Below are positions 1,367 through 55,328 of a DNA stretch of 64,000 bases, one piece after another. How positions within the stretch are numbered: position 1 is the stretch's first letter; every line of letters begins with the position of its first letter. The notes beneath the pieces were generated by a model, which searched no databases, was not told the origin of the DNA, and saw only the letters and a list, made by a program, of their open reading frames with translations. The DNA is from Candidatus Forterrea multitransposorum CG_2015-17_Forterrea_25_41 (GTDB taxonomy: Archaea > Iainarchaeota > Iainarchaeia > Iainarchaeales > CSSED10-239). A program made the translations under genes and the position numbers. The stretch spans positions 1-64,000 of the forward strand of contig CP045477.1 in NCBI GenBank assembly GCA_009392915.1, read 5' to 3'.

Positions 1367-2207
1367 TTATTTTTTTTAGTTTCTCTAAATTTCTTTTTCT
1401 TTTAAAAAGAGGATTTTTATTTTTTTGATAAACATTTTGCATTTCTTCAAAGGTTTTTTTCTTTTTAGAAATATAAATTATTCCTAAAGGCATTTTTTCA
1501 GTTTCTAAAGCTTTTAAAATTGCATTTTCTTTATTTTCTGGATTATAATCTTTTTCTAAATAATATGTGTTTTCTTTAAACCATTCAAAAGTATTTATTT
1601 TATTAAAAGTTACACATGGTTGAAGAATATCTACAATTGATAAGCCTTTATGATAAATTGCTTTTTGTAAGATTTCTTTTGTTTCTTTCAAGTCCCCTAT
1701 GTTTGCTCTAGCAACAAAAGATGCATCTAAAGAAATAGCTAGAGAAATTGGGTTTAAGGGCTCTAAAATAACCCCTGTTGTCTGAACTATAGTTTTCATT
1801 CCTTTTTTACTTGTAGGAGATGCTTGTCCTTTTGTTAAACCATAAATCATATTGTTGTGCACAATTATTGTAATATCTGGATTTCTTCTAATAGCATGTA
1901 AAAAATGATTTCCACCTTCTCCATACATATCTCCATCTCCACTTGTAACAATTACTTTTAAATCAGGATTAACAGCTTTAATAGCGGTTGCAGGAGGAAG
2001 TGATCTTCCGTGAAGTCCATTAAAAAAATTTGTATTAATATATTGTGGTGTTTTTGCCGCTTGTCCTATTCCTGAAACTAAAACTATATTTTCTGGTTTT
2101 AGTTTGGTTTCTTCTAGTACTTTTTTTAAAACTAAGTGTATTCCAAAATTTCCACATCCAGGGCACCATGCAATTTCTGTTTGGTTTGAAAAATCTATTT
2201 TGTTCAT
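1356..2207 (-). CDS. 2-oxoacid:ferredoxin oxidoreductase beta subunit (TPP-binding)
   Basis: N-terminal CPGCGNFG cluster motif and SGDGD TPP/Mg motif. Lies immediately downstream of the alpha/gamma-containing ORF. Confidence 0.9.
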   Translation of the reverse strand: MNKIDFSNQTEIAWCPGCGNFGIHLVLKKVLEETKLKPENIVLVSGIGQAAKTPQYINTNFFNGLHGRSLPPATAIKAVNPDLKVIVTSGDGDMYGEGGNHFLHAIRRNPDITIIVHNNMIYGLTKGQASPTSKKGMKTIVQTTGVILEPLNPISLAISLDASFVARANIGDLKETKEILQKAIYHKGLSIVDILQPCVTFNKINTFEWFKENTYYLEKDYNPENKENAILKALETEKMPLGIIYISKKKKTFEEMQNVYQKNKNPLFKRKRNLEKLKKIIKI

Positions 2208-2210
2208 ATT

Positions 2211-5093
2211 TTAATCTAACCTCTCTGTTATTTCTTGCATGACCTCTTCTACAAAGAATTGCAATCCATTATATTTTAATATTTTAATAACTTCTTTATT
2301 TGTTTCTTTTTTAATAAGTTCTGCAAATTGCCCTGTTGCATTTCCTTCAATAACTATTATTTTTTTTGCAGATTTAAGTAAGTCTTTTGTTCCAGGATAA
2401 ATTGGATATAATTGTTCATAATGAAGATATTTTATTTTTTTATTATCTATTTTTTCAACAGCTTCTTTAATTGTTTCAAAAGTACTTCCCCATCCAATAA
2501 TAATTATTTCATTACCTTTTCCAATAATTGTTGGCTTTAAACTTTCAAAAGTTATATCTTCTATTCTTTTTAATCTTTTTTTAACCATTTTAATTCTTAA
2601 AGAAAAATCTTCTGTAATATGTCCTGTTTGGTCATGTTCGTCACTATCCACACAAACTAAACCTTTTCCAAAGCCAGGGATTGCTCTAGGGGAAATTCCA
2701 CTTTCTGTAAAAGCATATCTTTGATAATCTTTTTTACTTTCTATAATATATTTTTCTTTATCTTCTTTTATTTCTATTTTTTCAAAAGGATAAAGATTTT
2801 CCATAAAATATTGATCTGTTAATATAAAAACAGGAATTTGGTATTTTTGAGAATCAATAAAAGCTTTGTTTGTAATCTCTACAGCACTTTTTAAATTTTT
2901 AGGAGCATATACAATTCTTGCAAATTCTCCATGTCCAGCGTGCATAACTAAATTTAAATCTTCTTGAGCTGTTCTTGTTGGAAGTCCAGTTGCAGGTCCT
3001 GGTCTTTGAGCTACATGTATGACTAATGGAGTTTCTATCATTCCTGCAAGGCTTACACCTTCACACATAAGTGCAAATCCTCCACCAGATGTGTTTGTAA
3101 GTGATCTTGCACCTGCAAAAGATGCTCCTAAACACATGTTTATTGCTGAAATTTCATCTTCTGCTTGTTCTACAATAATATCAAAATTTTCTCTTAATTT
3201 TGCTAGATTTTGTAAAACACCTGTTGATGGTGACATTGGGTATGCTGATATAAAATCACACCCTCCAGCAATTGCTCCGTATGCTATTGCTTGAGCACCT
3301 GTAAATAAATTATTTAATTTTATTTGTTTATTTTTTTTAATTTTTGGTAAATTTTTAACTATTTTTAAAATTTCTTTTCCTTTTAAAATACCTTTTTCTG
3401 CTGCTTGAATATTTTTTAAAACAATTTCTTTTCCTTTTTTTGAAAAACTTTCTTTTAGTTGTTTTATAAAATATTTTTTATTAATATTTAGTATTCCTAA
3501 AAGAGTTCCTGTTGCAACAGTGTTTGCAAAAACTTTATTTCCTATTTTTTCTGCAATTTCTTTAAAGGAAACATCAATTGTTTTATTTTTAAGCCCTAAT
3601 TTTCTAACTTCTTCTTTATTTCCAATAATAATTGTATTTTCATCAATTCTTTCTTTTAAATGTTCTATAGTATTTTTATCTAAAGCAAGTAAAATATCTA
3701 TTTTTTTTAAATTTCCTCTTCTTTCTTTTTCTGTAAGTCTAATAGATATGGTGTTAACTCCTCCTCTAACTCTTGACATATATTCAGAGTTTGAAGAAAA
3801 GTAAAAACCTTCTTCTTTAAGTATTTTAAGTAAAACATTTTGAACAGATACAAGACCTTGGCCTGCTTCTCCAGAAAGTACAATTGATAATTCTTTTTCA
3901 TCTATTTTTTTATTTTTAATTTCTTTTTTAAAAAGTTCTTTTGTTTTTTCAGTAATTATCTTTGAAAATTCATTTAATTTTTTAAAGTTTTCTTTTTTAG
4001 GAATTCCTGTTGAAATTTCTCCTAAAATAACTTCTGCTTCAAAATTATTTGTAATATTTTCAAATTCTTTAAAGGCTTCCCCACCCCATTCTTTAGATCC
4101 AATAAATCCAATAATTTTTGTTTTTGGTTTTAATTTATTTAAAGTACTAACTGTTGTTGAAACAATAGGGTGAAGCCCACCTAAAAAAGTAGGAGATGCT
4201 ATAATTAAAGTTGACGCATCTACCATTTCAATTGCAAGTTGTCCTATCTCTGTAGTTGTAAGATTATATTCTTTAACTTTATTGCCTTGGTTAATAAGTT
4301 TAGAAGTTAAATATTCAACCATTTTTTTTGTACTTCCGTGCATAGAAGTATACCCAATAATTATTTTTGGTTTGGTTTCTTTTTTTGACCAATTATAGTA
4401 TTTATCAATTATCCAATCAACATCTTGGTATATTTTTCCATGACTTGGAGCTATTATTTTTGGATTATATTCTTTTATTTTTTCTAAGTTTTTAAGAATA
4501 TAATTTCTAAAAGGCATCATTATTTCTGCATAATATCTTTTAGCAGGTAATTCTATTTCTTTTGTATCTTTAACAAATAATTCGCTTGTTGCAAGATGTG
4601 CTCCAAAAAAATCACAAGAAAACAAAATTTTATCTTCTTTTAAAAAAGTAGACATAGTTTCTGGCCAATGAACCCAAGGAGTATAAATAAATTTTAAGGT
4701 TTTATCTCCTAAGCTAATTTCTTCTAAGTCTTTAATAACTTGTATTCTTTTTTCCTCAATTACCATTTCATCTAAAAGTATTTTTTTACAAAGAGGATTA
4801 CAAATTAATTTTGCTTTTGGAAATTTATTTAAAATTATAGGTATTGATCCAGAGTGATCTTGTTCTGCATGATTAGATATAATATAATCTATATTTTTAA
4901 TATTTAATTTTTCTAAGTTTAAAATAAGTTCTTCTGTTTTTGTAATGTCAACAGTGTCTATTAAAGCTGTTTTTTTAGATCCAATTATTAAGTATGAATT
5001 GTAGCTAGTTCCATCTGGAAGATAGATTAGTTCATCAAAAAGCTTTCTATCCCAATCAATGGCTCCAACTGAATATATGTTTTTCTTAATCAT
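2211..5093 (-). CDS. fusion protein: flavodiiron protein (metallo-beta-lactamase diiron + flavodoxin) joined to OFOR gamma and alpha modules
   Basis: aa 1-240 carry FDP diiron ligands HAEQDH, VHWPE, CDFFGAH, PSHG. aa ~243-390 are flavodoxin-like (GYTSMHGSTKKM). From aa ~401, SGEAGQG marks the OFOR gamma module. From aa ~595, TGAQAIAYGAIAGGCDFISAYPMSPST marks the alpha module. Confidence 0.8.
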   Translation of the reverse strand: MIKKNIYSVGAIDWDRKLFDELIYLPDGTSYNSYLIIGSKKTALIDTVDITKTEELILNLEKLNIKNIDYIISNHAEQDHSGSIPIILNKFPKAKLICNPLCKKILLDEMVIEEKRIQVIKDLEEISLGDKTLKFIYTPWVHWPETMSTFLKEDKILFSCDFFGAHLATSELFVKDTKEIELPAKRYYAEIMMPFRNYILKNLEKIKEYNPKIIAPSHGKIYQDVDWIIDKYYNWSKKETKPKIIIGYTSMHGSTKKMVEYLTSKLINQGNKVKEYNLTTTEIGQLAIEMVDASTLIIASPTFLGGLHPIVSTTVSTLNKLKPKTKIIGFIGSKEWGGEAFKEFENITNNFEAEVILGEISTGIPKKENFKKLNEFSKIITEKTKELFKKEIKNKKIDEKELSIVLSGEAGQGLVSVQNVLLKILKEEGFYFSSNSEYMSRVRGGVNTISIRLTEKERRGNLKKIDILLALDKNTIEHLKERIDENTIIIGNKEEVRKLGLKNKTIDVSFKEIAEKIGNKVFANTVATGTLLGILNINKKYFIKQLKESFSKKGKEIVLKNIQAAEKGILKGKEILKIVKNLPKIKKNKQIKLNNLFTGAQAIAYGAIAGGCDFISAYPMSPSTGVLQNLAKLRENFDIIVEQAEDEISAINMCLGASFAGARSLTNTSGGGFALMCEGVSLAGMIETPLVIHVAQRPGPATGLPTRTAQEDLNLVMHAGHGEFARIVYAPKNLKSAVEITNKAFIDSQKYQIPVFILTDQYFMENLYPFEKIEIKEDKEKYIIESKKDYQRYAFTESGISPRAIPGFGKGLVCVDSDEHDQTGHITEDFSLRIKMVKKRLKRIEDITFESLKPTIIGKGNEIIIIGWGSTFETIKEAVEKIDNKKIKYLHYEQLYPIYPGTKDLLKSAKKIIVIEGNATGQFAELIKKETNKEVIKILKYNGLQFFVEEVMQEITERLD

Positions 5094-23653: not shown

Positions 23654-23699
23654 TATTGTCTAACCTATTTTATTACTAGATAAAGGAGGTTAGACAATA
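23654..23699 (+). promoter_or_regulatory. 13-bp perfect stem-loop occluding the transposase SD and start codon
   Basis: TATTGTCTAACCT (23654-23666) pairs with AGGTTAGACAATA (23687-23699). The right arm covers part of GGAGG and the A of the ATG. Confidence 0.5.
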
Positions 23700-24661
23700 T
23701 GAATATTAAGAACGAAAAGATTAATAAAAGGAACTGGTCAAAGATAAATTATGGAAAAACAAGACAAATCTTGTTTTTACTAGATAAAAACATTATTTTT
23801 AGTGAAAATGAAAGACTAGTTTCCCAAAATAAAAACAAACCAGGAAGACAATTTATATATAGTGATAGAATAATAGAACTATTAATTGATCTTAAAAATT
23901 ATTTTAAATTTGATTATCGTAAACTACAGGCATTCTGCCTGTTGTTTAATAATGTTATAAAAATAAAAACACCTGACTTTACAACTATTTGTAGAAGAAT
24001 GCACAAATTAGAATTATTTCTAAAAAATATAAAAACAAAAAAAGAACCAACCTTTATAGCTATAGATGGTTCTGGACTTCAAACTACTAATCGAGGAGAA
24101 TGGCTTAGATTAATACACAAAAAAGGAAAAATAAACTTAAGAAATGGATTTGTAAAATTAGTGATTGCAACAGATGTTGCATCTGGAGAAATAACTGGAG
24201 TGTATATTTCAGATGATTCTGATTTTGAAAATAAAAGCTTATCAGATTTATTATACCAAACAATAAATAATCAAAACCAAGAAGTCAAAGGACTTCTTGG
24301 AGATGGGGCATACGATTCTTATGATAACTTTGATATGCTTGATGATATGGGAATAAAACCAATTATCAAAATCAGAAAGAATGCAATTACAACAGAACCT
24401 AATGACGATTATTTAAAAAGAAGAAGAAAACTTGGAAAAAAGAAAAAAATAAAAAGAATTGAAGTTGCAAAAAAGCAACTTAAAAATGTAGATGACTGGA
24501 AACAAAAAAATGAGTATAATAAAAGGTGGGTTGTTGAATACACGTTTAGTGTATTCAAAAGACTATTCGGACATAGTGTGTACTCTAAAAGAAAGAAATA
24601 TGTCAAAAATGAAGTAATTTCTAAAGTAAATTTGTATAATAAATTATTAAATATCAATTAA
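23699..24661 (+). CDS. DDE transposase, IS4/IS5 superfamily
   Basis: D (IAIDGSG), D (LLGDGAYDS) and an exact Y-x2-R-x3-E-x6-K signature (YNKRWVVEYTFSVFK). Confidence 0.85.
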   Translation: MNIKNEKINKRNWSKINYGKTRQILFLLDKNIIFSENERLVSQNKNKPGRQFIYSDRIIELLIDLKNYFKFDYRKLQAFCLLFNNVIKIKTPDFTTICRRMHKLELFLKNIKTKKEPTFIAIDGSGLQTTNRGEWLRLIHKKGKINLRNGFVKLVIATDVASGEITGVYISDDSDFENKSLSDLLYQTINNQNQEVKGLLGDGAYDSYDNFDMLDDMGIKPIIKIRKNAITTEPNDDYLKRRRKLGKKKKIKRIEVAKKQLKNVDDWKQKNEYNKRWVVEYTFSVFKRLFGHSVYSKRKKYVKNEVISKVNLYNKLLNIN

Positions 24662-24818: not shown

Positions 24819-26192
24819 ATGGCTATAGACAAAAGATTTTTTTTAGGGATAACTATTAGTAAAAAAAGAAAAGCAATTTCTCCTTTAATTGCCACTATTC
24901 TTTTAATAGTTGTTGCCGTTGCAATTATAGCTATTATTGTTTCCTGGGGAAAAGGATTTACCAATGATTCTTTAAGCAAAGCCTCTGGTCTTGAAATTTA
25001 CACTGAATCAGAAACTTCTTTTTACTTGCAAGTAAAAAATTCAATAAACGGAAGAACTGTTGTTCAATATAATCCTCCTTATAATTCTCCTCACACCTCT
25101 TTAACCATAACAGGTTATAGCCTACATGGTAACACGAATATTAATCCCATAGATCCACCAATTACAATAACTGCAAACCAAACTGCAGTTATTGATCATG
25201 GTATTTTATTTCCAGAATTAAATTTAGTTTTATATTTGGATAATGATCGAATGATTATTAAAACTGATCTTTTACAAACTATTAAATCTCCTCTTTCTTG
25301 TCCAGAAGGTTATGTTTCTGTTCCAGGAAACCACTTATATGGAACTATGAATGAAAGTGGGGGTTTTTGTGTTTCAAAATATGAGATGAAAATGGATAGA
25401 ACAGGAGATGGAATAGGAAATCTTGTAGCTGATTATCCTGATTGTAACACCGGTTCTTTAACATATAATACTTATAGTTATGAATTATGCCCTACACCAG
25501 GCACTTTAGTTTCTACTCCAGAAGGTTCTCCCATAGCAAGAATCACACAAACTGAAAGCATATCAGCCTGTGAAGCTATTGGTGGTCATTTAATAACAAA
25601 TAACGAATGGATGACCATTGTACGAAACATAGAACAAGTTCCATCTAATTGGTCAGGTGGAGCAGTTGGTGATGGCTACCTTCCAAGAGGGAATTCATCT
25701 TCTTCAGGAGCTATGGAAGGCTTTGATCAACTTTCAGGAACTACCAAAAGAACCTTGACCTTAACAAACGGAGAGGTAATTTGGGATTTAGCAGGAAATG
25801 TAAGACAATGGACCAGTGACACTATTCAAAGAAAGGACCAGCCTGATGGTTTTAATAATGTAGATGATAGTAATAATACTTCTGGTTTTAATTGGTTTGA
25901 TTATTTTAAGGGCGGTGGAGTAGATCAATATATTTATTCTGATAATTTAGGTAACACCACCTTAAAGTATAAAGATTTATTTTTATTAACTAGTAATACT
26001 TATAATGCAACAGATAATGGTGTTGGAAGGATTTATACTTATAGTGATTTTAGTGATACTAGTACAACTGAGTACGCGTTTTTGCGCGGTGGTCACTGGG
26101 GCAATGGCACTAATGCCGGGGTCTTGCACCTGGTCTTGAACAAGACTCCTGGGTCCCGGAGCATCCTCATCGGCCTGCGCTGTGTCAAGTAG
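24819..26192 (+). CDS. DGR target protein: archaeal pilin-type class III signal peptide, linker, FGE/C-type-lectin-fold domain with C-terminal variable region
   Basis: N-terminus KKRKAISPLIATILLIVVAVAIIAIIV (DUF1628-like). FGE-sulfatase-like motifs SKYEM, GGHLITNNEW, WDLAGNVRQW, RGGHW and IGLRCVK. The last ~39 codons are the VR matching the TR downstream. Confidence 0.9.
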   Translation: MAIDKRFFLGITISKKRKAISPLIATILLIVVAVAIIAIIVSWGKGFTNDSLSKASGLEIYTESETSFYLQVKNSINGRTVVQYNPPYNSPHTSLTITGYSLHGNTNINPIDPPITITANQTAVIDHGILFPELNLVLYLDNDRMIIKTDLLQTIKSPLSCPEGYVSVPGNHLYGTMNESGGFCVSKYEMKMDRTGDGIGNLVADYPDCNTGSLTYNTYSYELCPTPGTLVSTPEGSPIARITQTESISACEAIGGHLITNNEWMTIVRNIEQVPSNWSGGAVGDGYLPRGNSSSSGAMEGFDQLSGTTKRTLTLTNGEVIWDLAGNVRQWTSDTIQRKDQPDGFNNVDDSNNTSGFNWFDYFKGGGVDQYIYSDNLGNTTLKYKDLFLLTSNTYNATDNGVGRIYTYSDFSDTSTTEYAFLRGGHWGNGTNAGVLHLVLNKTPGSRSILIGLRCVK

Positions 26193-26195
26193 TTT
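26075..26195 (+). repeat. DGR variable repeat (VR)
   Basis: 121 bp aligns without gaps to 27300-27420. There are 13 mismatches, 12 of them at TR adenines. GC-rich compared with its surroundings. Confidence 0.9.
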
Positions 26196-26498: not shown

Positions 26499-26885
26499 AT
26501 GAGTTTAGTTGGAAATGAAAAAGGAATTCTAAATTTTGGTGTTTACAAGGAGCTTTTCCCAATCGTTATTGAAACTTATAATTTTTTAGAAAATAATAAA
26601 TCTTTATTTAAAGTAGATTTTGTTTATACAGATACTGTTAAAAATTTAATAGATATTCTTTCTTTTCTTTCCAAAGGGTATAATAAATTTCATTCTAATG
26701 AAAAATCTTTACTTTACTCTTATTCAAGAGATTGTGTTTCTACAACCCAATCTAATCTTTTAATATTATCTGAACTTAATAAAGATCTCTCAAAAGAAAA
26801 AACCTTATATTTTTATAATCAATTTGAGGATAAAATAAAGTATTTTAATGGTTTAATAAAAAAGATTGAAGAAAATAAAAACTAG
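26499..26885 (+). CDS. divergent four-helix-bundle (Avd-like) protein
   Basis: 128 aa with predicted helical repeats that loosely parallel Avd (VYKELFPIVIETYNFL..., LLILSELNKDL..., YFNGLIKKIE). Positioned directly upstream of avd. Confidence 0.4.
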   Translation: MSLVGNEKGILNFGVYKELFPIVIETYNFLENNKSLFKVDFVYTDTVKNLIDILSFLSKGYNKFHSNEKSLLYSYSRDCVSTTQSNLLILSELNKDLSKEKTLYFYNQFEDKIKYFNGLIKKIEENKN

Positions 26886-26896
26886 GGTATATTATT

Positions 26897-27226
26897 ATGT
26901 TATTTGACTTAAAGTTATATAAAGAAACTTATAACTTTTTACTTTATATTTATCCTGAAATAAATAAATTCCCTAAATCAGATAAATATTCTTTAGGAGA
27001 GGATATTAAAAAAACAACTATTTCTTTAATGTCAAATATTGTTCTTTTTTCAAAGCATAATGAAAATACTTTAAAAGAAGCAGATAAAAACTTAGAATTA
27101 CTAAGAATATATATTAGGCTTTCTTTTGATTTAAAAATAATCTCTTTTAAAAAATATGAGGTTATTTCAAGGCAATTAAATGATATTGGTAATTTATTAG
27201 GTGGTCTTTTAAAACAAAAGATTTAA
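26897..27226 (+). CDS. avd: DGR accessory variability determinant (Avd; four-helix-bundle / 23S rRNA-IVS protein family)
   Basis: LYKETYNFLLYIYPEINKFPKSDKYSLGEDIKKTTISLMSNI matches the family pattern. 109 aa, located between the target gene and the TR. Confidence 0.8.
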   Translation: MLFDLKLYKETYNFLLYIYPEINKFPKSDKYSLGEDIKKTTISLMSNIVLFSKHNENTLKEADKNLELLRIYIRLSFDLKIISFKKYEVISRQLNDIGNLLGGLLKQKI

Positions 27227-27299
27227 ATATTTTTTCAACTAATAGTTATGTTGTTCTTTTAAATAAAAAGAATAGGGCTTTTACAGAAAAAAACAGGTG

Positions 27300-27420
27300 C
27301 GCGTTTTTGCGCGGTGGTAACTGGAACAATGGCACTAATGCCGGGGTCTTGAACCTGAACTTGAACAATACTCCTGGGAACCGGAACAACAACATCGGCC
27401 TGCGCTGTGTCAAGTAGTTT
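27300..27420 (+). repeat. DGR template repeat (TR)
   Basis: Non-coding copy of the VR, rich in AAC/AAT triplets in the VR frame (G N W N N G T N A G V L N L N L N N T P G N R N N N I G L R C V K). Lies 258 bp upstream of the RT gene. Confidence 0.9.
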
Positions 27421-27422
27421 CT

Positions 27423-27445
27423 CCTTATTATTTTTAATAATAAGG
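27423..27445 (+). other. perfect 10-bp stem-loop immediately 3' of the TR
   Basis: CCTTATTATT, loop TTT, then AATAATAAGG, followed by a T-run. Confidence 0.55.
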
Positions 27446-27678
27446 TTTTATCAGAGTTTGTATGTTTATTTTTTTATCTAAAAAAACATATAAAGCGAAT
27501 ATTTTAAAAAACTACATCTGTAAAATGTTTCCTGATTGCACATAATGTGTGCCATAAGAACTATTTTGTTTTTATGTTAAAAAATCAAATATAAAGATAA
27601 GTTATTACATTTAGTATTTTTATAGTCTGTAAAAAGAAATCTGTAATAACTCTTAACTTTAAATAAGGCTTTTTAAAA

Positions 27679-28695
27679 ATGAAATCATACAATAACCTTT
27701 GGCAAGAATTCACTTCTTTTAAAAATATTTTTAATGCCTATAAAAAAGCAAGAAAGTCCACACCAAACAAAAAGTATATCTTGCAATTTACCACAAATTT
27801 AGAAAAGGAGTTATTCTTATTACAAGATCAATTAATTTCAGAAAATTTTCAATTTTCTCCTTACAGAAGTTTTAAAGTTTATGAACCTAAAGAAAGAACA
27901 ATAAGTGCACCTATTTTCAGGGATGTTGTTGTTCAGCATGCCATAATAAACATTATTGAACCTATTTTTGATAAAACCTTTATAGATAACTCTTTTGCTT
28001 GTAGAAAAGGAAAAGGCACACATAAAGGGCTTTTTGAAATTAAAAAAGTAATTCAAACCCCAAATCATCCAAAATACTATTTAAAACAAGATGTAAAGAA
28101 ATACTTTCCTTCAGTTCATAAACCTACCTTAAAAGAAATAATTTTTAAAAGAATTAAGGATGCAAGATTACTTTCTCTAATATATAAAATAATTGATAGT
28201 TATTCTTTTGATTTAAATCAAATTCAAAAAGGTATCCCTATAGGTAATTTAACCTCTCAGTTGTTTGCAAATATTTATTTAAACCATTTAGATCAGTATG
28301 TTAAGCATTCTTTAAAAATTAAACATTATTATAGATATGTAGATGATTTTTTAATATTTTCAAACAATAAAAGAAAATTACATGTTTTTAGAAGAAAAAT
28401 AAAATTATTTTTAAGTAAAGAACTATTATTAGATGTTCCAAAAAATAAAACTTATATAAACTTAGTAAGTAAAGGAGTTGATTTTTTAGGTTATAAGGTA
28501 TTTCCTTCAAACATAAGATTAAGAAAATCAAATCTTAAAAGATTTCTTCTAAGACAAAATAAAAATAACTTTCTTCTAAAAAAAAATCAAATTTCTAAAC
28601 TTAACTATAATTTTTCTCTTTTTTCTTTTTTAGGTTATGCAAAGCATGCAAACTCTTATAATCTCTTAAGTACTTTAAATATTAATGAGTTATAG
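27679..28695 (+). CDS. DGR-type reverse transcriptase
   Basis: RT motifs SAPIFRDVVVQHAI, IPIGNLTSQLFANIYL (DGR-typical [I/L]GxxxSQ) and YVDDFLIF. 338 aa, adjacent to the TR. Confidence 0.9.
   Translation: MKSYNNLWQEFTSFKNIFNAYKKARKSTPNKKYILQFTTNLEKELFLLQDQLISENFQFSPYRSFKVYEPKERTISAPIFRDVVVQHAIINIIEPIFDKTFIDNSFACRKGKGTHKGLFEIKKVIQTPNHPKYYLKQDVKKYFPSVHKPTLKEIIFKRIKDARLLSLIYKIIDSYSFDLNQIQKGIPIGNLTSQLFANIYLNHLDQYVKHSLKIKHYYRYVDDFLIFSNNKRKLHVFRRKIKLFLSKELLLDVPKNKTYINLVSKGVDFLGYKVFPSNIRLRKSNLKRFLLRQNKNNFLLKKNQISKLNYNFSLFSFLGYAKHANSYNLLSTLNINEL
28589..28687 (+). repeat. 99-bp direct repeat, copy 1 (3' end of the RT gene)
   Basis: Identical base for base to 30138-30236. Confidence 0.9.
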
Positions 28696-28838: not shown

Positions 28839-30104
28839 ATGGATAAAGCTTTTTTAAGAAACGTTGTTTCTGACCAGTATGAAGATTTAAAAGATGTTTC
28901 AAAAACAATACAAAGATATGATTCAAAAGAAATAGCGCGCTTTGTAAATAATCCTGCTATATCTATAATTTCAGGAGTAAGGCGTTGTGGTAAGTCCACT
29001 TTTTTAGAGCAGATAATAAATTTATATTATAAAAATAACTTTTATTATTTTGATTTTTCTGATGAAAGAATTGCAAAATTTGAAACTGCTGACTTTCAAA
29101 CATTATATGAGGTGTTTTTAGAAAAATTTGGAAAAAGACAGGCTTTTTTCTTTGATGAAATACAAGGAGTTCCAGAATGGAATAAATTTGTTAATAGAAT
29201 GAAAAAGATTGGGCATAAATGTTTTGTAACCGGTTCAAATTCAAATTTGTTAAGTCAAGAAATATCTACTTATCTAACAGGAAGACATATTGATAAAATC
29301 TTATTCCCTTTTTCCTTTAAAGAATATTTAACGTATAAAAATATTAATGTAGATTTAGATTCTACAAAATCAAGAACCTTAATTATTAAAGAGTTTAAAA
29401 ATTACTTTAAAATAGGTGGTTTTCCAGAGGTTGTTTTAACAAACGATACTTCAATTTTATTAAATATTTATTCTGACATAATTTCTAAAGATATAATTGA
29501 AAGATTTAGGATTAATGATGTTTCTTTATTTAAAGAATTTTGTAATTATGTAATTTCTTTATCTACGAATGAATTTACTTTTAAATCATTAAAAGATAAT
29601 TTTAATATTCAGAATATTACTACTGTTTCAAACTATCTTGATTATCTTAAATTAACTTACCTTGTTTATGAAGTTAAAAGATTTTCTTCTTCATTACAAA
29701 AATTAAATAAATATCCAAAAAAATATTATTGTATAGATAATGGTTTATTAAATAAAGTGGGTTTTGGATATTCAATAGAGGAAACTAGATTTTTAGAAAA
29801 TCAAGTTTTTATTGAACTTTGGAGAAATAATCCGCAATCTGAAATTTATTATTATAGAGATAAGGATAATAAAGAATGTGATTTTTTATTGTTAAATGAT
29901 AGAAAAGTAGTTAAGGCTATTCAAGTGTGTTTTGCTTTTAAAAAGATAGATACTAGAAAAAGAGAAATAGAAGGTTTACTATCTGCTTTAAAAGAGTTTA
30001 ATCTAAATTATGGCGAAATTATTACTTTTGAGCATAAAGAAAAATTAAAGATAGATGGAAAAGTAATAGAGATGATTCCTGTATATGAGTGGTTATTAAA
30101 ATAA
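28839..30104 (+). CDS. AAA-family ATPase (AAA_14 + DUF4143 type)
   Basis: Walker A SGVRRCGKST, Walker B FFFDEIQ; 421 aa. Sits between the two 99-bp repeat copies. Confidence 0.75.
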   Translation: MDKAFLRNVVSDQYEDLKDVSKTIQRYDSKEIARFVNNPAISIISGVRRCGKSTFLEQIINLYYKNNFYYFDFSDERIAKFETADFQTLYEVFLEKFGKRQAFFFDEIQGVPEWNKFVNRMKKIGHKCFVTGSNSNLLSQEISTYLTGRHIDKILFPFSFKEYLTYKNINVDLDSTKSRTLIIKEFKNYFKIGGFPEVVLTNDTSILLNIYSDIISKDIIERFRINDVSLFKEFCNYVISLSTNEFTFKSLKDNFNIQNITTVSNYLDYLKLTYLVYEVKRFSSSLQKLNKYPKKYYCIDNGLLNKVGFGYSIEETRFLENQVFIELWRNNPQSEIYYYRDKDNKECDFLLLNDRKVVKAIQVCFAFKKIDTRKREIEGLLSALKEFNLNYGEIITFEHKEKLKIDGKVIEMIPVYEWLLK

Positions 30105-30137: not shown

Positions 30138-30236
30138 AAATTTCTAAACTTAACTATAATTTTTCTCTTTTTTCTTTTTTAGGTTATGCAAAGCATGCAA
30201 ACTCTTATAATCTCTTAAGTACTTTAAATATTAATG
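30138..30236 (+). repeat. 99-bp direct repeat, copy 2 (orphan duplicate of the RT 3' end)
   Basis: Identical to 28589-28687. It is no longer attached to an RT ORF. Confidence 0.9.
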
Positions 30237-37617: not shown

Positions 37618-37699
37618 GCAGAGGTGGCGGAGTGGTCAAACGCGCCAGCCTTGAGAGCTGGAGCCTTGCGCTACACGAGTTCGAATCTCGTCCTCTGCG
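37618..37699 (+). tRNA. tRNA-Ser (anticodon UGA)
   Basis: Acceptor GCAGAGG/CCTCTGC. Anticodon stem CCAGC/GCTGG with loop CTTGAGA. Long variable arm and T-loop TTCGAAT. Confidence 0.9.
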
Positions 37700-37730
37700 C
37701 TTTATCTTTTAAAATATAGGAATTTTTATT

Positions 37731-38063
37731 ATGATTAAAGAAAACATTTCTTTTCAAGATTTTTTAAAACTTGATATAAGAATTGGAACAATTGTTGAGG
37801 CTGAAGCTGTTGAGGGTTCTGATAAATTAATAAAATTAATAATTGATTTTAAAGATTTTAAAAGACAGATTTTAGCTGGTATTAAAACAAAATATCAACC
37901 AACTGATTTATTAAACAAACAAATTCCTGTTATTGTAAATTTAGAACCTAGAAAAATGATGGGTTTTGAAAGTCAAGGAATGATCTTAGCTGTTGGAGAT
38001 AAAACTTTAGATGCTTTACTTTTACCATCTGAGCCTGTATCGGAAGGCTCGATTGTACACTAA
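37731..38063 (+). CDS. tRNA-binding domain protein (Trbp111/CsaA/EMAP-like)
   Basis: FLKLDIRIGTIVEAEAVEGSDKLIKLIIDF...GFESQGMILA matches the OB-fold tRNA-binding domain pattern. Confidence 0.8.
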   Translation: MIKENISFQDFLKLDIRIGTIVEAEAVEGSDKLIKLIIDFKDFKRQILAGIKTKYQPTDLLNKQIPVIVNLEPRKMMGFESQGMILAVGDKTLDALLLPSEPVSEGSIVH

Positions 38064-38084
38064 TTTTTTTTTAAAACTAAAAAT

Positions 38085-38166
38085 GCAGAGGTGGCGGAGT
38101 GGTCAAACGCGCAAGCCTGGAAAGCTTGAGCCTCGTGCTACGCGAGTTCGAATCTCGTCCTCTGCG
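38085..38166 (+). tRNA. tRNA-Ser (anticodon GGA)
   Basis: Acceptor, D and T arms are the same as in the first tRNA-Ser. Anticodon stem CAAGC/GCTTG with loop CTGGAAA. Confidence 0.9.
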
Positions 38167-38197
38167 CTTTTTTCTTTTTTAATTTAATATTTATTTT

Positions 38198-38286
38198 GCA
38201 GAGATGGCGGAGTGGTCAAACGCACAAGTTTCGAAAACTTGATTAAGGTTTTTTCCTTTACATGAGTTCAAATCTCATTCTCTGCG
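38198..38286 (+). tRNA. tRNA-Ser (anticodon CGA)
   Basis: Acceptor GCAGAGA/TCTCTGC. Anticodon stem CAAGT/ACTTG with loop TTCGAAA. Long variable arm AAGG-TTTTTT-CCTT and T-loop TTCAAAT. Confidence 0.85.
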
Positions 38287-55210: not shown

Positions 55211-55328
55211 TGTTAGCGGCCATAGGGATGGAGAAACACCTGGACCCTTTCCGAACCCAGAAGTTAAGTCTATTGCCGTTTTAGTTCGCTGTTAGTTCAT
55301 GCTAGTAGCGTCTTTAAAGCTGCTAACA
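55211..55328 (+). rRNA. rrf: 5S ribosomal RNA (orphan, not linked to 16S/23S)
   Basis: GCGGCCATAGG...CCGAACCCAGAAGTTAAG core. Terminal helix TGTTAGCGGC/GCTGCTAACA. Confidence 0.85.

Follow-up and report, generated by a model that had tools for sequence, protein, structure and literature searches.

A covarying RNA structure between the template repeat and the reverse transcriptase gene of an archaeal diversity-generating retroelement

The window analyzed here (the 64,000-nt stretch at positions 1 to 64,000 of contig CP045477.1 of Candidatus Forterrea multitransposorum, 24.6 % GC) carries on its plus strand a canonical diversity-generating retroelement (DGR), in which the target gene with its variable repeat (VR) is followed by an Avd-like gene, avd, the template repeat (TR), a spacer and the gene of the reverse transcriptase (RT). 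The target gene (24819-26192, 457 aa) encodes a protein with an FGE-sulfatase / C-type-lectin-like fold (Pfam, 7e-07) and holds the VR (26072-26195) at its 3' end; avd (accessory variability determinant; 26897-27226, 109 aa) matches the Pfam families PF22296 bAvd (2e-21) and PF05635 (8.5e-10); the TR (27297-27420) is a 124-nt repeat shared with the VR; and the RT (27679-28695, 338 aa) matches RVT_1 (1.5e-21). TR and VR differ by 14 mismatches over 124 nt, 12 of which fall at TR adenines, and such differences are also adenine-specific in related loci (e.g., 19/19 in the locus numbered L164 and 18/18 in L081). The RT motif PIGNLTSQ is invariant across the family alignment, and IGNLTSQ is, as we take it, a mark of DGR RTs. 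Homologues of this RT number 6880 at E <= 1e-20, with several source-labelled as DPANN (e.g., Pacearchaeota, Aenigmarchaeota, Nanoarchaeota). The host of the window is itself an archaeon; the window encodes the termination factor FttA/aCPSF1, a proteasome subunit and an archaeal-type helicase.

Between the TR and the RT gene lies a 258-nt spacer (27421-27678), which an earlier note, made from the sequence alone, had singled out for its opening hairpin. The description holds to the nucleotide: a perfect 10-bp stem with a UUU loop (CCTTATTATT-TTT-AATAATAAGG, 27423-27445, plus strand, -7.0 kcal/mol; hereafter P1) is formed by C27423-T27432 and A27436-G27445 around the loop T27433-T27435, starts 3 nt past the end of the TR/VR homology (which stops at T27420) and is followed by TTTT at 27446-27449. 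The second inverted repeat pointed out in that note, GTTATTACA (27601-27609) with TGTAATAAC (27642-27650), is likewise exact, and the spacer is free of open reading frames (ORFs) of at least 50 aa on either strand, with only mechanical ORFs of at most 42 aa overlapping it. The TR/VR homology ends before the stem, and the flank of the VR has no such hairpin. As for the caution, voiced in the same note, that AT-rich stems of this length can arise by chance, the hairpin taken alone is indeed suggestive rather than decisive in a spacer of 20 % GC: perfect hairpins of at least 10 bp with loops of 3-8 nt occur 10 times in the window versus 4.0 +/- 2.0 times in dinucleotide shuffles, and a shuffled spacer contains a hairpin of that class with P = 0.027 and one starting within its first 8 nt with P = 0.0003. 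The whole spacer folds at -52.1 kcal/mol (z = -4.28 versus shuffles, 0 of 200 being as good). The decisive evidence comes from conservation and covariation.

Tracing RT homologues to their DNA yielded 17 distinct loci (RT 52-78 % identical) with an alignable non-coding region between avd and RT, one of which (L161) shares synteny with the window on either flank. Covariance models of the 5' half of this region (R1, made from six close sequences with a structure specified by hand, and R3) match where expected in 18 distinct loci, one of them the window; R1 gives one match per locus and nothing else among 255 loci, neither model brings up further family members in that set, and in viral contigs no RT is closer than 46 %. 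The model of the 3' half (R2) finds the expected site in the window and in L161 under default filters and, with filters off, in all 16 other loci. The covariation analysis of related spacers proposed in the earlier note thus gives a positive answer, with stems kept via compensatory changes in the 17 relatives, and the hairpin that had drawn attention is the first of six conserved, covarying stems in a non-coding RNA between TR and RT.

All helices of the comparative model are conserved and covary. In the alignment of the 5' half (A6), 92.6 % of cells are paired (vs. 78.6 % in shuffles and 43-58 % with the partner slid), both sides have changed in 21 of 26 pairs, and the covariation score is reached by 0 of 500 shuffles. 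A gap-free alignment of 15 sequences for the stop duplex described below (A7) has 88 % of cells paired (vs. 62.7 % in shuffles), with both sides changed in all 10 pairs and a covariation score again reached by 0 of 500 shuffles, and the alignment of the 3' half (A10) has 95.6 % of cells paired (vs. 66.6 %), with both sides changed in 29/31 pairs. The minimum free energy (MFE) fold of 27250-27660, with the TR included, recovers every helix of the comparative model and shows no competing long-range pairing. Among the modelled pairs, G-U cells outnumber C-A cells by 69 to 18, so that the structure is that of a plus-strand RNA. A search of Rfam over 27200-27720 gave no match at the gathering score, the best one at the E-value threshold reaching 21 bits against a cut-off of 80.

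We are highly confident that the spacer is a conserved structured RNA pairing both with the 3' end of the TR and with a strand upstream of it. In the first of these pairings, the template:primer duplex, the template (T) strand GTAGTTTCT (27414-27422, the TR 3' end plus 2 nt) pairs with AAAAACUAC (27507-27515), which together with a two-nucleotide joint, A27516-U27517, makes up the primer strand S1 (27507-27517). This duplex (helix 1 of A6) has 95.7 % of its cells paired and compensatory changes in 5 of its 9 pairs, as in L002 (TAATTTTT with AAAAATTAC), L003 (GTAGTTCTT with AAGAACTAC) and L081 (GTAGTC with GACTAC). Within the primer strand and joint, ACUACAU (27511-27517) is invariant except for a U at C27512 in L002 (AUUACAU), and the corresponding ACTACAT columns are invariant or nearly so in alignments A3, A4 and A6. 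Upstream of the primer strand stands an 11-bp hairpin with a variable loop (P2, 27457-27494; 27457-27467 with 27484-27494; helix 3 of A6), which has 93 % of its cells paired and both sides changed in 10 of 11 pairs.

In the second pairing, the stop duplex, the upstream (U) strand (27275-27286, i.e., TTTTACAG at 27279-27286, perhaps extended by GGGC at 27275-27278) pairs with the S2 strand (27518-27530, i.e., CUGUAAAA at 27518-27525, perhaps extended at 27527-27530). S2 is formed by the 8-10 nt after the conserved ACUACAU, and its partner follows a hairpin (P0) and AGG just upstream of the TR. Covarying versions of the duplex across the family include TTTTACAG/CTGTAAAA, TTATACTA/TAGTATAA, TTATATT/AATATAA, CTTACA/TGTAAG, ATTATCGG/CTGATAAT and CATACTG/CAGTGTG. 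Picked as the best match in single sequences, the stop duplex is not significant alone in such AT-rich DNA; its significance derives from conserved position and covariation. P0 itself (GTTCTTTT-AAATA-AAAAGAAT, 27253-27273, plus strand) is located past the avd stop codon and ahead of the upstream strand and appears in the MFE fold. Inspection by eye shows a hairpin and then AGG at the corresponding position of relatives, and RNAalifold returned no structure for the P0 region on a MAFFT alignment in which the arms were misaligned. P0 may mark the 5' boundary of the DGR RNA or serve in its processing.

Only one family member, L005, has a non-complementary stop duplex, and its TR and VR differ at 48 positions, 21 of them adenines; a broken stop duplex together with a decayed TR/VR pair fits a loss of function. 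In the region concerned (2216-2630 of this locus), L005 and L255 have almost the same upstream strand but different spacers, and L005 is probably a recombinant, decaying element. In another member, L003, the stretch 1377-3001 contains a target-like ORF whose end is VR-like and poor in adenine and is directly followed by the spacer RNA and the RT gene; avd genes, the upstream strand and a second copy of the repeat are all missing. It looks like a deletion by VR-TR recombination, and hence a dead DGR.

The 3' half of the spacer contains a three-way junction (27533-27587) made of a closing helix (27533-27537 with 27583-27587), hairpin A (27538-27552) and hairpin B (27553-27576), all of which are found by R2 and A10 as well as in the MFE fold. 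Paired cells amount to 96.5 %, 86.6 % and 95.2 %, and pairs changed on both sides to 4/5, 5/6 and 9/9, for the closing helix, hairpin A and hairpin B, respectively. The junction is followed by a linker, AAAUAUAAAGAU (27588-27599), which is unpaired in both the comparative model and the MFE fold and A-rich in relatives as well, and by a terminal stem-loop (27600-27651; helix 4 of A10) built on the second inverted repeat. The latter has 98.9 % of its cells paired and both sides changed in 11 of 11 pairs, and its loop holds conserved UUAGUA (27611-27616) and GAAnUCU (27636-27642); UAGUA is invariant in the true matches of A10, the first U of UUAGUA being changed in L254.

To our knowledge, a phage element is the only DGR whose mechanism has been worked out. 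This is the DGR of the Bordetella phage BPP-1, whose RNA, consisting of the avd 3' end, the TR and a 140-nt spacer (Sp), was characterized by Handa et al. with cryo-EM and biochemical methods (PMC6182149; bioRxiv 10.1101/2023.10.23.563531). In that RNA, a stem-loop at Sp 3-33 binds Avd; Sp 47-56 is paired with TR 117-129 and A56 primes via its 2'-OH; after 2 nt, Sp 59-70 pairs upstream of the TR, which stops polymerization; and toward its end Sp has a short stem-loop whose adenosines make A-minor contacts, a single-stranded segment that rings the RT thumb and a long stem-loop bound by the RT (bioRxiv 10.1101/2023.10.23.563531; PMC6182149). The window RNA follows this layout in several features: the order avd-TR-Sp-RT; a stem-loop at the start of the spacer (P1, with P2 as a second candidate, for putative Avd binding); pairing of the TR 3' end with a spacer strand that ends at the (here predicted) priming site; a two-nucleotide joint followed by a spacer strand that pairs with sequence upstream of the TR; and an A-rich single strand before a long terminal stem-loop (putatively RT-binding) next to the RT gene. 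Even the junction reads C-A-N-C in both, with C55 A56 G57 C58 in BPP-1 and C27515 A27516 U27517 C27518 in the window.

By analogy with the Bordetella phage, we therefore propose a plus-strand DGR RNA whose limits would lie near 27250, shortly past avd, and near 27651, shortly ahead of the RT start codon, and whose spacer part would be transcribed together with the TR. The stop duplex (27279-27286 with 27518-27525) would close the TR into a loop; the template:primer duplex (27414-27422 with 27507-27515), with only A27516 and U27517 between it and the stop duplex, would close a three-way junction whose other arms are P1 and P2; and further downstream would come the second three-way junction, the A-rich linker and the terminal stem-loop. 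The RNA may wrap the RT-Avd complex, with one or both 5' hairpins docking on Avd and the terminal stem-loop docking on the RT, which would copy the TR with errors at adenines and halt at the stop duplex. The best overall explanation, to which we assign a probability of roughly 0.8, is that the spacer serves as Sp in a cis-acting DGR RNA with a self-priming fold, and this RNA probably primes cDNA synthesis in cis as in the phage, by a presumably similar chemistry. Because its register matches the phage's C55-A56-G57-C58 followed by the stop duplex, we predict a priming nucleotide at the same junction, with about an even chance for A27516 and a lesser one for C27515 as a tentative second candidate. 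A TR/VR comparison in the relatives did not fix the cDNA start site, as there are no informative adenines near the TR 3' end. The chief suggestion of the earlier note, that the structured spacer supplies the priming site, is thus supported by the match of the layout to the Bordetella phage RNA: a structured RNA and a complement of the TR 3' end (27507-27515) are both present, and priming there is probable. The perfect hairpin that had prompted the suggestion is not the priming element.

The kind of RNA is already known, since putative equivalents of the Avd-binding stem-loop and of the stop duplex have been predicted for 207 out of 278 Avd-type DGRs, among them those of Nanoarchaeota and Candidate Phyla Radiation (CPR) organisms (bioRxiv 10.1101/2023.10.23.563531). 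Those predictions were made by single-sequence folding of 40 nt upstream and 100 nt downstream of the TR (bioRxiv 10.1101/2023.10.23.563531), whereas the RNA of the window is backed by covariation over 18 loci and its whole spacer is modelled. It adds a covariation-supported member, with elements specific to its lineage, to the known class of DGR spacer RNAs and is not a new kind of system. It differs from BPP-1 in the following: the two RNAs share no sequence similarity (and neither has an Rfam family); the spacer is 258 rather than 140 nt long; two hairpins (P1 and P2) instead of one precede the primer strand; where the stop element of BPP-1 has an 8-nt stem-loop, the window has a three-way junction of 55 nt; its upstream strand is intergenic and follows P0, whereas that of BPP-1 lies inside avd; and the window has two tandem Avd-like genes and an archaeal host. 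The RNA as proposed here also resembles retron msr-msd, a structured RNA adjoining an RT gene that provides both template and primer and primes from an internal 2'-OH at a duplex end. Unlike DGRs, however, retrons lack a TR/VR pair, Avd and adenine mutagenesis, prime from a conserved G and make multicopy single-stranded DNA (msDNA), and no retron RNA family was matched in Rfam.

A sister clade of six loci (L006, L007, L013, L014, L082, L105; RT 47-49 % identical), which is not detected by models R1 and R3, shares the core of the structure. Its members have the primer motif (ACUACAUC-type / (A)CUACAUC, with AUUACAUC in L082), the template:primer duplex, a stop duplex (GGATTGGATTG with CAATCCAAATCC) and the terminal stem-loop with UAGUA. 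They differ from the window family in having a single 5' hairpin, with a conserved CUUUACGGAG loop, at the position of P2 (P2 being its positional counterpart) and no P1; and where the window family has the three-way junction, they have a short stem-loop of 4 bp whose loop is GAAA or GCAAA (L007, L006).

Several points weigh against the proposed function or limit its support. The candidate priming nucleotide A27516 would face A27413 and stay unpaired, without the U partner that the phage has (A56:U118), and the co-transcription of TR and spacer, the ends of the RNA and priming itself are predictions from sequence. The family has only 18 distinct members including the window; the covariation alignments were fitted to the model; the register of the stop duplex was set by hand within +/- 1 nt of its anchor, which is a possible bias; and the model-fitted alignment A6 shifts the register of some P1 rows, so that the count of double changes in P1 is inflated. 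Furthermore, P1 is only 3 bp long (CCU/AGG, -0.1 kcal/mol) in L164 and L165, probably also in L163, and is missing from the sister clade, though the other elements are kept there. A long perfect stem is therefore not required for the mechanism, and much of the length of P1 may be neutral.

Could, then, the spacer RNA be functional and the long P1 a neutral expansion of an AT-rich palindrome, of which only the position and the CC/GG base, or nothing at all, matters? Besides the missing P1 of the sister clade, this would suit the variation of the stem from 3 to 10 bp across the family, with the longest in the window, and the fact that perfect 10-bp AT-rich hairpins are not rare (10 in 64 kb where 4 are expected). 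We nevertheless consider it improbable. A hairpin is kept at exactly the same junction in 18 of 18 family members, and the chance of a start so close to the TR end is only about 0.0003 (within 8 nt, as above). By single-sequence folding, a simple hairpin appears 0-3 nt past the template strand in 14 of these 18 (in L163, L003, L253 and L255 the MFE fold picked another pairing and the CC...GG hairpin was seen by eye). The closing CC/GG is nearly invariant, and the rest of the stem varies by true compensation (CCUUAUU/AAUAAGG, CCUUAAA/UUUAAGG, CCAAA/UUUGG, CUCUUUU/AAAAGAG, UCCUA/UAGGA), including switches from U-A to A-U in L002, L253, L081 and L255 and from C-G to U-A in L005. P1 is a lineage-specific peripheral stem of variable length, which, given its absence from the sister clade, was added in this lineage. 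It abuts the template:primer duplex, on which it probably stacks, and it may offer an extra protein contact; that P1 rather than P2 is the main Avd contact seems to us doubtful.

The earlier note had also raised the alternative that P1 and its T-run form a terminator or attenuator, which would limit read-through from avd-TR into the RT gene. The resemblance to an intrinsic (rho-independent) terminator is real, as a perfect 10-bp stem is directly followed by TTTT; most relatives have 5-7 U in the 8 nt past the hairpin, and in AT-rich archaea oligo-T tracts can terminate transcription. However, the stem is AU-rich and weak (only 2 G-C pairs, -7 kcal/mol), is down to 3 bp in two relatives (L164, L165) and went unflagged in a terminator scan, and the U-run is not conserved (2 U in L005 and 1 U in L254 within those 8 nt, and UUAAAA, by eye, in L253). 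The host is an archaeon that encodes FttA, and a hairpin is unnecessary for archaeal termination. Strands downstream of P1 covary with the TR and with sequence upstream of it, which places the spacer strands and the TR on the same RNA, and a stop at P1 would part the TR from the very strands needed for cis pairing. We therefore regard this alternative as very improbable. A role of P1 at the DNA level, as a cruciform or hairpin marking the repeat end (a DNA hairpin/cruciform downstream of the VR reportedly promotes homing in the Bordetella phage), has a negligible probability, since the hairpin flanks the TR and not the VR, whose flank has none, G-U pairs, workable only in plus-strand RNA, are common in the modelled helices, and P1 is embedded in a covarying RNA junction.

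DGRs are abundant in the tiny-genome DPANN and CPR organisms and are, as far as we know, the only natural machines for targeted protein hypermutation. Against this background, the self-priming spacer RNA proposed here supports the generality of the cis-priming model, in that an archaeal DGR keeps the two-duplex core, as established by covariation and not by single-sequence folding, while its peripheral elements differ. A defined RNA (27250-27651) and defined nucleotides are now available for reconstitution, and annotators gain a means to recognize the non-coding part of a DGR, a family of which is lacking in Rfam.

The protein side of the element has a peculiarity of its own. Directly upstream of avd lies a divergent Avd-like gene (26499-26885, plus strand, 128 aa), whose product in the window has no Pfam match itself. 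Its Avd-like nature is recognized through its orthologues, 7 of 10 of which match PF05635 (best E-value 3e-07); a comparison of the 128-aa family with Avd by hhalign gave a probability of only 4.7 %. The gene stands beside avd in every locus of the RNA family with enough flank and, among about 230 other DGR loci, only in L007, L013, L028 and L159. Two Avd-like genes in tandem have, as far as we know, not been described. L007 and L013 have the second protein and no P1, so that the idea of P1 as its binding site is not supported. A more far-reaching and, in our view, rather unlikely reading is that the DPANN DGR ribonucleoprotein is an elaborated one, with the extra P1, the three-way junction in place of the small stop stem-loop and a tandem pair of Avd-like proteins, from which a mixed Avd scaffold might be built. 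In that case, the minimal architecture of the Bordetella phage would not be universal, RNA and accessory proteins would have co-evolved, and the covariance models would represent the first comparative RNA family for archaeal DGRs, with a testable priming nucleotide (A27516 or C27515).

A transposase gene of the DDE insertion-sequence (IS) type (23699-24661, DDE_Tnp_1, 4e-22) lies directly upstream of the target gene, and the syntenic relative L161 has none at the same place. At the other end, a 99-nt perfect direct repeat (28589-28687 and 30138-30236) copies the last 33 codons of the RT gene, and the 1.45-kb insert between its two copies carries an AAA_14/DUF4143 ATPase gene (28839-30104). The repeat and the insert may be an assembly artefact; L161 is without the insert, and L168 has such an ATPase gene directly after RT. 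Elsewhere in the window, Rfam families identify three tRNA genes and one 5S rRNA gene within 37618-38286 and 55212-55328.

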